NCBI GenBank assembly: GCA_015140255.1
Contig: CP043993.1
Location: 143,579 to 207,578 of the forward strand
DNA: 64,000 nucleotides
Direction: 5' to 3'
From: Candidatus Stammera capleta
GTDB taxonomy: Bacteria > Pseudomonadota > Gammaproteobacteria > Enterobacterales > Enterobacteriaceae
In this document: positions 9,252 to 45,990 of the stretch, one piece after another
Layout: each line of letters opens with the position of its first letter
Position numbering within the stretch: position 1 is the stretch's first letter
Translations under genes and position numbers: made by a program
The notes under the pieces: generated by a model
Databases searched by the model: none
Told to the model about the DNA's origin: nothing
What the model saw: only the letters and a program-made list of their open reading frames with translations

Positions 9252-9324
<73 letters not shown>

Positions 9325-13663: not shown

Positions 13664-14236
13664 ATGAATTTAAAAGATATTTTTTTTATAGGTAATAATA
13701 TTATTTATTTAAATGAACCCTATAAAATAGAATTTATTGATTTTATTAAGCCAGGTAAAGGTCATGAATTTATACGTACTAAAATAAGAAATTGAATTAC
13801 AAATAAATTAATTACTAAAACATTTAAATTTTTTAGTAATATAAAAAAAGCTAATATTTATATTGATAAATATTTATATATATATAATTTAAAAAATTAT
13901 TGGTATTTTTTAAATAAATGTAATTATCATCAAATTTCTTTATCTAAAAAAATAGTTAATAAGTATATTTCTTTAATATTTATAAATAATTTTTATAAAA
14001 TTGTATTTTGAAATAATAATCCTATAAATATAATATTACCTAAATATGTAATATTAAAGGTAATTAAAATTTATTTTGATAAAAAAGATTATTCTTTTTC
14101 TAATATTAAATATGTAAAATTAGTTACTGGTTTAAAAATAAAAGTTCCTAATTTTATTAATATAGGAGATATTATTAAAATAGATACAAAATATTTTTCT
14201 TATAAATCTCGTGTTAATAATTTTAATTATATATAA
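13664..14236 (+). CDS. efp: elongation factor P
   Basis: ATG 13664 to TAA 14234-14236, 190 aa. The loop FIKPGKGHEFIRTKIRNW(TGA) matches the E. coli-type VKPGKGQAFARVKLR. C-terminal GDIIKIDT..Y.SR. Confidence 0.88.
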
Positions 14237-24307: not shown

Positions 24308-24310
24308 TTT

Positions 24311-24384
24311 CGGTGAGTGGCGCAGCTTGGTAGCGCAACTGGTTTGGGACTAGTGGGTCGGAGGTTCAAATCCTCTCTCGCCGA
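24311..24384 (+). tRNA. tRNA-Pro (anticodon UGG)
   Basis: CGGTGAGTGGCGCAGCTTGGTAGCGCAACTGGTTTGGGACTAGTGGGTCGGAGGTTCAAATCCTCTCTCGCCGA. Near-identical to E. coli proM. Confidence 0.93.
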
Positions 24385-24401
24385 TTAATAATTTTAAATT
24401 T

Positions 24402-44127: not shown

Positions 44128-44919
44128 ATGTTATTAGTTGATTCTCATTGTCATCTTGATATTTTAATGAATTTTAAAAAAAAATATAAAAATATTAATA
44201 AATTAATAAATTTATTTAAAAAAAATAAGTTTTTGTATTTATTAACTATATCTACTAATATTAAAAATTTTTTTAGTATTTTTAGTATGTTTTCATATAT
44301 AGATATTATTAAATTATCTTGTGGTATACATCCTCTTTATATTGAAACTGTTACTAATAGTGATTATTTAGATTTAGAAAAATTTGTTTCTTATAAAAAA
44401 GTTATTGCTGTTGGTGAAACTGGTTTAGATTATAAAATAAATATTAAAAAAAATATAAAAAAAAAACAAATAGATCTTTTTATTTATCATTTATATTTAG
44501 CTAATAAATATAGAAAACCTTGTATTATTCATTCAAGAAATTCTTATAATGATACTTTAAATATTATTAAAAAATTTAATATTAATTTATTTGGTGCTGT
44601 TATACATTGTTATAGTTATTTTAAAAAAAAAGTTTTATTTAAATTTTTAGATTGTGGTGTTTATATATCTATTTCTGGATTAATAACTTATAAAAATAAT
44701 TTTTTATTACAAAAAATTATAAAGTATATTCCTTTAGATAAATTATTAGTTGAAACAGATTCTCCTTATTTGACACCTTATCCTTATAGAGGGAGTATCA
44801 ATAATCCTTCTAAAATTATATTTACATTTAAACAAATTTCTAAACTTAAAAAAATTAGTTTTTATAAAATATTAAAAATTAATATAAATAATTTTTTAAA
44901 TTTATTTAATATTTTTTAG
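44128..44919 (+). CDS. ycfH: TatD-family metal-dependent hydrolase YcfH
   Basis: MLLVDSHCHLD, GIHPL, AVGETGLDY, PCIIHSR, IHCYS, YISISG, LLVETDSPYLTP. Stop is TAG. Confidence 0.92.
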   Translation: MLLVDSHCHLDILMNFKKKYKNINKLINLFKKNKFLYLLTISTNIKNFFSIFSMFSYIDIIKLSCGIHPLYIETVTNSDYLDLEKFVSYKKVIAVGETGLDYKINIKKNIKKKQIDLFIYHLYLANKYRKPCIIHSRNSYNDTLNIIKKFNINLFGAVIHCYSYFKKKVLFKFLDCGVYISISGLITYKNNFLLQKIIKYIPLDKLLVETDSPYLTPYPYRGSINNPSKIIFTFKQISKLKKISFYKILKININNFLNLFNIF

Positions 44920-45787
44920 TTGTTTTTTTTTAACTATAAAAATTTGATATTTTTTTTTTTTTATTTTAATTCAATTAATTTTGATTAATTTATTTTTTTT
45001 TATAATTATTTTTTTTTGATGTCCTGTTTCACATATTAAGTATCCTTTTTTATTTAAATATTTATATGATCTACTAATTATTTTTTGTATTAAATAAGTT
45101 CCTTTATCTTTACTTATTAAAGATATTTTAGGTTCATAAGAATATTCTTTTGGTAAATATTTTATATCTTTTTTATTTATATATGGTGGGATTACTAATT
45201 ATAAGATCATATTTATTTTTTATTTTTTCAAATAAATTTGATTTAATTAATTTAATTTGTTTTTTTTTTTTATGAATTAAAATATTTTTTTTAGCTATTT
45301 TAAGTGCTTTTTTTGATATATCTATGGCATCTATTTTAGACTCAGGAAATATATATGCACAACATATAGCTATACATCCACTACCAGTACATAAGTCTAA
45401 TATTTTTTTTGGATAATATTTTTTTTTAATAAATTGAAATTTATTTTTTATTATTTCAGATATAGGTGATCTAGGTATGATAACTCTATTATCAATATAA
45501 AATTTTTTATTACAAAATCATGTATTTTTAGTTAAATAAGCTATAGGTATTTTTTTTTTTATTCTTAATTTAGCTAATTTAATAATTTTATTTCTTTGTT
45601 TTTTTGTTATTTTATAATATTTAATTGTATTAATTTTTTTATTTATATTTATTTTTAATATTGAATATATTAAATGTATAGTTTCTGTATAATAATTATA
45701 TGTTCCATGACCATAATATATATTATTATGTTTAAATAGTCTATTGCAATATTTGATTAAATTTAATAAAAATAATTTATTTTTCAT
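44902..45787 (-). pseudogene. prmB: 50S ribosomal protein L3 glutamine N5-methyltransferase PrmB, with the reading frame broken by one extra nucleotide inside the NPPY motif (a pseudogene, or dependent on a +1 frameshift)
   Basis: The 5' frame from ATG 45787 reads ..IYYGHGTYNYYTE.., IPIAYLTKNTW(TGA)FCNKKFYIDNRVIIPRSPISE, ILDLCTGSGCIAICCAY, KYDLIISN-P-T-I-Y-K-stop (TAA at 45173-45175). The +1 frame continues PPYINKKDIKYLPKEYSYEPKISL...GYLICETG to TAA at 44902-44904. The junction on the minus strand is AGT AAT CCC ACC ATA T (plus strand 45181-45196); removing one C gives AAT CCA CCA TAT = NPPY. Confidence 0.8.
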
Positions 45788-45830
45788 ATTTATATAATAT
45801 AATAATATATATATAATTTGTATATTTATT

Positions 45831-45911
45831 ACGGAAGTGGCGAAATTGGTAGACGCACTAGAATTAGGGTCTAGTACTTTATGTGTGCGAGTTCAAATCT
45901 CGTCTTCCGTA
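45831..45911 (+). tRNA. tRNA-Leu (anticodon UAG)
   Basis: ACGGAAGTGGCGAAATTGGTAGACGCACTAGAATTAGGGTCTAGTACTTTATGTGTGCGAGTTCAAATCTCGTCTTCCGTA. Resembles E. coli leuW. Long variable arm. Confidence 0.9.
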
Positions 45912-45919
45912 TTTTGTAG

Positions 45920-45990
45920 TGGGGTATAGCCAAGTGGTAAGGCATCGGGTTTTGATCCCGAGATCCCAGGTTCAAATCCTGGTACCCCGG
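45920..45990 (+). tRNA. tRNA-Gln (anticodon UUG)
   Basis: TGGGGTATAGCCAAGTGGTAAGGCATCGGGTTTTGATCCCGAGATCCCAGGTTCAAATCCTGGTACCCCGG. Resembles E. coli glnU. Confidence 0.92.

Follow-up and report, generated by a model that had tools for sequence, protein, structure and literature searches.

prmB, the gene for a methyltransferase of ribosomal protein L3, is interrupted in one lineage of Candidatus Stammera capleta, a gut symbiont of tortoise beetles, by one surplus base within the codons of its catalytic NPPY motif. The gene lies on the minus strand of the 64,000-nucleotide stretch analyzed here (hereafter the window; assembly GCA_015140255.1, contig CP043993.1, G000:C1:143579-207578, where G000 is this Stammera genome and numbers of the form G0xx are other species-level Stammera genomes). 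The extra base is private to G000, and we conclude that prmB is probably a young pseudogene of a dispensable gene, giving rise to at most an adventitious +1 leak. An initial annotation of the window had suggested that ribosomes could slip at this site and had named a young pseudogene as one of the simpler alternatives; the latter has become the best reading, given a private lesion, the loss or breakage of prmB in two other lineages, and constraint that looks modestly relaxed. In the sequence of events that we propose, a single nucleotide would have been inserted recently inside the NPPY codons, on the terminal branch leading to the G000 lineage. Normal decoding would now yield a dead fragment of 204 amino acids (aa), making prmB an early-stage pseudogene in a genome that would still be shedding dispensable genes, and full-length PrmB would come solely from unselected +1 slippage of the only tRNA-Pro(UGG) at CCC-A, probably at a low level.

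The prmB reading frame is broken within the NPPY motif

Genes in the window, whose GC content is 16-17%, are open only when TGA is read as Trp (genetic code 4), and each half of prmB holds one such in-frame TGA, so that the earlier treatment of TGA as a sense codon was correct. With this code, the open reading frame (ORF) from ATG 45787 encodes 204 aa and ends in ...KYDLIISN-PTIYK*. Re-reading the minus strand gave the codons AAT (45193-45191), CCC (45190-45188), ACC (45187-45185), ATA, TAT, AAA and TAA (45175-45173) at the lesion, exactly as the initial annotation had them. The +1 frame from 45189 reads PPYINKKDIKYLPKEYSYEPK...GYLICETG...KNIK and continues for 95 codons to a stop at 44904-44902. 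A +1 slip of peptidyl-tRNA-Pro from CCC to CCA would restore N-P-P-Y; the peptides predicted over the shift site are ...YDLIISNPPYINK for the trans-frame product and ...YDLIISNPTIYK for the frame-0 product. As a control, we scanned the +1 frame of the 132 G000 genes of at least 300 codons, where none of 53,547 windows of 95 codons was free of TAA and TAG and the longest open run was 64 codons. The open +1 frame of prmB is therefore far beyond chance, which confirms the frame break and the conserved remainder of roughly 95 codons that had been reported for it. Read in this frame, prmB shares its last 18 nt (44902-44919) with the 3′ end of a convergent tatD-like gene (44128-44919).

The lesion had been described as a single extra C. 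One surplus base is indeed present in the NPPY codons, but it is not necessarily a C, since the closest relative, G053, reads AAT CCC CCA TAT. The G000 sequence CCCACCA can be derived from CCACCA by adding a C or from CCCCCA by adding an A, and two events are needed either way. The juxtaposition of CCC-A and ACC is the automatic outcome of putting one base into CCA CCA or CCC CCA and is thus not an independently evolved feature.

The identity of the gene was established from the read-through product, obtained by reading CCCA as one step. This 294-aa protein scores 318.6 bits against the PrmB equivalog model TIGR03533 (cut-off 229.7), with residues 9-286 aligned to positions 6-283 of the 284 in the profile. 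Pfam assigns an MTS methyltransferase domain, and the nearest solved structures are HemK-family enzymes in alignments that span NPPY. We rejected an identity as PrmC: the product scores 193.9 bits against the PrmC model TIGR03534, under its cut-off of 199.1, and a separate prmC paralogue is found at C1:296676-297422, adjoining an RF1-like gene.

Motif I and motif IV of the enzyme do not share a frame, as LDLCTGSG and the N of NPPY are in frame 0 while PPY is found solely in frame +1 (frame 0 reads NPTIYK*). Because motif IV loses its PPY and the last 95 residues, the whole C-terminal third of the enzyme, are missing from the 204-aa product, standard decoding is expected to yield a catalytically dead protein. 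A functional split enzyme was considered and rejected, as the C-terminal piece offers neither a Met nor another plausible initiation codon and motif IV is missing from the N-terminal piece.

Among 45 Stammera genomes, only G000 has the extra base

Comparison of the same site in relatives, proposed in the initial annotation for sister strains or host populations, was carried out in a collection of 45 species-level Stammera genomes, with prmB extracted from all 43 others that gave a match. An intact prmB ORF of 278-308 aa with in-frame AAT CCN CCN TA(T/C) is present in 42 of the 44 other genomes, and the extra base was found in none of the 44. The motif is written AAT CCA CCA TAT in G006, G011 and G032. 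The ten orthologues of the closest clade are all 294 aa long and align collinearly and without gaps to the G000 read-through protein. G000 and G053 share 84.9% of their aa before the shift and 87.4% after it (85% overall).

The two remaining genomes have lost or broken prmB by other routes. In G034 the gene is broken elsewhere (L075/L056): aa 24-51 are encoded in a different frame from the catalytic aa 78-290, and the longest ATG-started ORF is 187 aa. No prmB match was obtained in the genome search of G013, where the syntenic holB/tRNA-Leu interval measures ~380 bp; inspection of this locus (L076, G013:C1:41318-45604) revealed a 42-codon remnant of the prmB 5′ end with 62% identity, and tatD is also gone. 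prmB has therefore been disrupted three times independently among the 45 lineages. In Escherichia coli, PrmB is the N5-methyltransferase of L3 Gln150, acts in ribosome assembly and modifies a part of L3 close to the peptidyl-transferase centre; mutants in prmB survive, with cold-sensitive ribosome assembly and no measurable change in the rate or accuracy of translation (PMC3347575). G013 retains only a remnant and G034 carries a broken copy, so that prmB is dispensable in close relatives of G000, as it is in E. coli.

An independent assembly carries the same base

The G000 genome comprises 307,816 bp in two contigs (301,995 and 5,821 bp), with 17.6% GC and code 4. The Stammera genomes were assembled with MEGAHIT from Illumina 2x150 metagenomes, some bins being reordered and scaffolded on a reference, and were annotated with code 4 and with pseudogene calls by Pseudofinder (bioRxiv 10.1101/2023.12.12.571295). 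A second assembly of the locus was found among Logan contigs by exact identity of the TatD-like neighbor and of the truncated 204-aa prmB product. This contig (9,427 bp, run SRR10017630), built by a different assembler, matches the window over 4,995 bp, including GGTGGGATT at the lesion. The lesion lies in the interior of the contig, and the 204-aa product is called there too.

These data bear on whether the surplus base exists at all. If it came from assembly or polishing, the true genome would have six bases and an in-frame NPPY; in particular, a base-calling error in the GGG run at 45188-45190 had been put forward, and it is disfavored by the identical sequence across the site in the independent assembly. 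An artefact of any kind appears very unlikely because of the Illumina chemistry and the run of only three bases: an indel in such a run is very improbable in 2x150 data, and the lesion is not in a long homopolymer. What speaks for an artefact is the local quality of the assembly. The essential gene ileS appears in three frames in the same assembly, having lost 1 nt from an A-tract and a further 28 nt; according to the source paper, a reference was used to reorder and scaffold some Stammera bins; and a 3-bp indel separates the Logan contig from the assembly ~730 bp from the lesion. It is the odd ileS case that leads us to keep a small probability on assembly problems.

The 3-bp indel is the sole difference in the 4,995 bp. 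SRR10017630_1576 has an extra TAT at window 45919/45920, in the spacer between tRNA-Leu (45830-45912) and tRNA-Gln (45920-45990), which is either a polymorphism or an assembler difference.

A collection of 5.8 billion proteins contained nothing more than 85% identical to the prmB product save G000's own 204-aa protein, and held no record of the exact in-frame 294-aa allele. A minority intact allele beside the contig sequence is possible.

Age of the lesion and selection on the copy

With G006 as the outgroup, prmB has accumulated 21 unique aa changes in G000 and 12 in G053, compared with 4,840 and 3,876 genome-wide (226 genes, 1.25:1). The nucleotide changes unique to G000 are distributed 28:19 between codon positions 1+2 and position 3, versus 11:21 for those unique to G053 (Fisher p = 0.039). 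On the G000 branch the baseline is 43% at positions 1+2 (74 ungapped orthologue triples), against which prmB ranks 8th of 75 (binomial p = 0.018). Constraint on the G000 copy looks modestly relaxed by these measures. Downstream of the shift, where changes are few, the G000-unique ratio is 10:3, and the uniquely changed codons comprise 2 synonymous and 6 non-synonymous ones. No second lesion was found in G000 prmB. Taken together, the comparisons suggest a young lesion of terminal-branch origin. The prmB data are compatible both with a copy that has been dead only briefly and with one under weak selection because it leaks.

One block of the gene stands out. Codons 99-103 (window ~45479-45493) encode DNRVI in G000 and NYGAL in both G053 and G006, all through point changes, and the G000 version resembles that of more distant Stammera (DKRSI, DKRTI). 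The block could be homoplasy, ancestral polymorphism or a small conversion tract.

Translation machinery and slippage at the prmB site

The features under discussion are collected in Table 1.

Table 1. Window coordinates of the two parts of prmB, its lesion and the genes for decoding factors
Feature	Position	Strand	Description
prmB 5′ part, frame 0	45176..45787	-	204 codons, ATG 45787 to ...LIISN-PTIYK; N-terminal domain and S-adenosylmethionine (SAM)-binding motif I (LDLCTGSG)
Lesion and candidate shift site AAT CCC ACC (N, P, T)	45185..45193	-	one base in excess of AAT CCA CCA or AAT CCC CCA
Frame-0 stop TAA	45173..45175	-	five codons past the CCC of the shift site
prmB 3′ part, frame +1	44905..45189	-	95 codons, PPYINKK...KNIK, motif IV NPPY onwards; free of stops and indels
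TAA stop of the prmB +1-frame continuation	44902..44904	-	
tRNA-Pro(UGG)	24310..24385	+	no other proline tRNA in the genome; anticodon loop UU-UGG-GA of the normal 7 nt, G37 being the TrmD substrate
tRNA-Thr(UGU)	9252..9324	+	sole threonine tRNA; must decode the frame-0 A-site codon ACC by U:C wobble
efp (EF-P)	13664..14236	+	full length; known suppressor of +1 slippage at proline codons

An alternative to a dying gene is that compensatory ("corrective") +1 frameshifting keeps L3 methylated, so that the indel is tolerated and the gene stays functional. tRNA-Pro(UGG), held only weakly on CCC by a U:C wobble, would re-pair to its cognate codon CCA while the rare ACC awaits tRNA-Thr(UGU). We regard this as unlikely, and the more specific claim that G000 keeps L3 methylated by an efficient compensatory shift at CCC-ACC through its sole tRNA-Pro(UGG) as doubtful.

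The decoding apparatus offers this alternative some support. The suppositions of the initial annotation about tRNAs hold genome-wide: tRNA-Pro(UGG) is the only Pro isoacceptor and would form three Watson-Crick pairs with the +1 codon CCA, its pairing with CCC being weak, and the only tRNA-Thr is UGU, with no tRNA-Thr(GGU). Both codons at the site are rare in the whole genome, CCC making up 50 of 2,129 Pro codons (2.3%) and ACC 85 of 3,244 Thr codons (2.6%), and the A-site codon ACC is a rare sense codon read by that single tRNA-Thr(UGU). In vitro, the +1 shift of native E. coli tRNA-Pro(UGG) is faster and goes further on CCC-A than in any other CCC-N context (PMC4519876).

Modification enzymes that could restrain such a shift also appear incomplete. 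Family models for cmoB (cmo5U34) and EpmB (EF-P lysylation) had no match in the whole genome, and the best whole-genome match to the EpmA model was under its cut-off, inside a 474-aa ORF resembling LysRS. With no true EpmA or EpmB detected, EF-P may be unmodified, and the missing enzymes may raise slippage at proline codons generally. The RF2 model likewise gave only a below-cut-off match across the genome, which is the RF1-like gene adjoining prmC (C1:295644-297422); a missing RF2 fits the reading of UGA as Trp.

A precedent is found within the genus. Eight other Stammera (G036, G017, G045, G009, G051, G007, G014 and G004; L121-L128) share a +1 site in trmD of the form AGG(U/A) U(U/A)U CCY UAA U, where frame 0 reads ...G(F/Y)P* and frame +1 reads P-NYT(R/K)P. 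The C-terminal part of trmD after the shift is conserved, with 62-76% identity to G000, whose own sequence is the uninterrupted SYPNYTRP; G053 and G006 likewise have trmD in one frame. From this eight-species site, productive +1 slippage on peptidyl-tRNA-Pro seems to exist in the genus. In G008 (L129), trmD has a different break, at aa 154 (..AAA TAT TAA TTC..).

Several considerations nonetheless argue against compensation at prmB. First, m1G37, made by TrmD, is the main suppressor of the CCC-N +1 shift, and EF-P also suppresses it (PMC4519876); in G000 trmD is in one frame (222 bits, above cut-off), efp is intact, and tRNA-Pro has G37. Second, the site has no architecture that would promote a shift: the sequence leading up to the shift codon, UUAGUAAU / AUAAUUAGUAAU-CCC, contains no Shine-Dalgarno-like stimulator ~3 nt before it, and the A site holds the sense codon ACC and no stop. 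Third, in-frame CCC is followed by A in 24 of its 50 occurrences, compared with 51% for CCT, and CCC is no rarer than GCC, ACC, GGC or other NNC codons. CCC-A is thus not avoided, and efficient slippage there would harm the genes at ~23 other in-frame sites. Fourth, the lesion is private to one lineage and so gives no sign of persistence, two sister lineages dispense with prmB, and constraint on the copy is modestly relaxed. The L3 target motif of G000 is intact and identical to that of E. coli around Gln150, which would favor an active PrmB; it is weak evidence, however, because the motif is conserved with or without PrmB. The earlier suggestion that a fraction of ribosomes could produce full-length PrmB is accordingly reasonable as mechanism, but nothing points beyond an accident of sequence.

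Two other routes to a full-length product were tried and rejected. A suppressor tRNA of the sufB type does not fit the normal 7-nt anticodon loop of the sole tRNA-Pro. Rescue by transcriptional slippage does not fit the lesion CCCACCA, which contains a 3-base run and no homopolymer; the stretch from CCC to the frame-0 stop contains no A-run, and a slip on the A11 run ~25 codons upstream runs into a TAA in the resulting frame and would change the N of NPPY to another residue.

It is also conceivable that the shift evolved as a programmed or regulatory element by which PrmB is tuned to the state of the ribosome or to tRNA-Pro modification, by analogy with prfB or the trmD site. The shift would occur on a Pro codon, in a genus with a conserved Pro-codon +1 site in trmD; CCC-A in the P site permits the sole tRNA-Pro(UGG) to re-pair in +1; and a feedback loop can be imagined because PrmB modifies L3 near the peptidyl-transferase centre (PMC3347575). 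Against this, none of the 44 other genomes shares the prmB site, no stimulatory element accompanies it, all of its features follow from one base inserted in CCA CCA or CCC CCA, and constraint is relaxed, not strengthened. We consider such an evolved element highly improbable.

Evidence weighed against a young pseudogene

A number of results sit uneasily with our preferred reading of prmB as a young pseudogene. In the substitution data, the excess of aa changes in prmB along the G000 branch falls short of significance (p = 0.22; 7 vs 3 in the downstream part, p = 0.28), and the signal of relaxed constraint comes partly from the one 5-codon block at aa 99-103. The 95 downstream codons have no stop or indel, and their similarity to G053 (87%) matches that of the upstream part (85%). 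In a neutral, AT-biased simulation of the 13 G000-unique downstream substitutions, the frame stayed free of stops in just 18% of cases, so that its intactness (P = 0.18 under neutrality) gives some support to compensation. prmB also has value in Stammera, having been kept in 42 of the 44 other lineages, a retention that likewise favors a compensated gene. Moreover, no +1 context known for tRNA-Pro(UGG) is better than that of the lesion, neither cmoB nor the enzymes that modify EF-P were detected in the genome, and in eight other Stammera trmD appears to rely on +1 slippage of tRNA-Pro; each of these would also suit compensation. A functionally useful leak at the prmB site is possible.

Relation to known frameshifts

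As a young pseudogene, prmB would resemble the frameshift pseudogenes of Buchnera, Blochmannia and Stammera, in which a single-base indel interrupts an otherwise well-preserved dispensable gene. It also shares with the pseudogenes of reduced insect symbionts the losses in sisters (G013, G034), the loss of a neighbor (tatD in G013), strict vertical inheritance and a drift-dominated genome. Unlike the usual symbiont pseudogene, the prmB indel is not in a long A/T homopolymer; it lies in the catalytic motif, at what is by chance a good +1 slippage site. Poly(A) slippage in Buchnera and Blochmannia (cited in PMC5009743) offers the parallel of a frameshifted gene that might still be expressed in an AT-rich symbiont. 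The prmB lesion differs in having only a 3-base run, and with no homopolymer at the lesion and a TAA awaiting any slip on the A11 run, poly(A) slippage cannot rescue it.

The closest analogues of a compensated prmB are the +1 frameshifts of animal mitochondria, in which one inserted base interrupts a conserved gene in a tiny, vertically inherited genome with minimal tRNAs, a rare frame-0 codon follows the insert, and the correct product needs a +1 shift (PMC5009743). That class of frameshifting, reviewed for mitochondria, is expected in endosymbionts too (PMC5009743). The mitochondrial inserts, however, are in essential genes and have persisted for tens to hundreds of millions of years across lineages (PMC5009743), whereas prmB is non-essential and its insert, known here from sequence alone, belongs to one lineage.

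Mechanistically, the site is like the CCC-N slippage of E. coli and Salmonella (PMC4519876), with a tRNA-Pro(UGG) that is weak on CCC and perfect on the +1 codon CCA. The E. coli and Salmonella shifts are error-level events in reporters, unlike the situation in G000, which has no detected cmoB, EpmA or EpmB and no competing tRNA-Pro(GGG); E. coli efficiencies are therefore not transferable. The trmD site of Stammera and prfB (RF2) also involve a +1 shift, and in trmD, as here, peptidyl-tRNA-Pro is in the P site and the tRNA is the same sole tRNA-Pro(UGG). In contrast to the trmD site, which is found in eight species with UAA in the A site, AGG three bases upstream and a prfB-like geometry, the prmB site lacks all of these features and is confined to a single genome.

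Taken as a young pseudogene, prmB is routine: one more dated step of gene loss in Stammera and a further instance of repeated prmB loss. Its added value is that the break falls by accident on the best-characterized +1 context of tRNA-Pro(UGG), in a genome that has one tRNA each for Pro and Thr and in which enzymes for EF-P or U34 modification were not detected, making the site a natural test of how leaky slippage is in minimal translation systems. If compensation were true, prmB would be the bacterial equivalent of a mitochondrial "corrective" frameshift, observed just as it emerges, in a genus that seems to slip for trmD already, and a natural system for how a minimal tRNA set with unmodified EF-P and U34 raises proline-codon slippage. 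For annotation, the locus is best labeled a frameshifted prmB pseudogene and not two genes.

Other frame-broken genes

The initial annotation had singled out prmB as the only gene in the window with a broken frame. A reciprocal code-4 tblastn screen of G000, G053 and G006, which covered the whole chromosome and included the closest relative, is consistent with this: it returned prmB and ileS as the only frame-broken genes in G000, none in G053 and one in G006. An apparent frameshifted gene in G053 was rejected, as the ORF call had run into a tRNA-Ser gene.

ileS lies outside the window (G000:C1:68402-71189) and is spread over three frames (aa 1-46, 59-431 and 456-939), the IleRS of G053 and G006 being 939 aa long. 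Compared with the G053 gene, one nucleotide is missing from an A-rich tract near C1:68548 and 28 nt are missing near C1:69741, where the conserved ..IKKVKWNPSWG.. block is lost; the halves retain HIGH-type, KMSKS and RPDWCISRQR motifs. A second copy was not seen in G000, and beyond the G000 fragment itself the records searched have intact orthologues from other species but no intact G000 allele. Either assembly or scaffolding has introduced an error into ileS, or an essential gene is broken here in a remarkable way.

The frame-broken gene of G006 (G006:C1:220538-221082) resembles 5-formyltetrahydrofolate cyclo-ligase, which has 190 aa in G000, and is out of frame because its poly(A) tract differs in length by 4 nt, a break of the homopolymer type usual for Stammera genomes.

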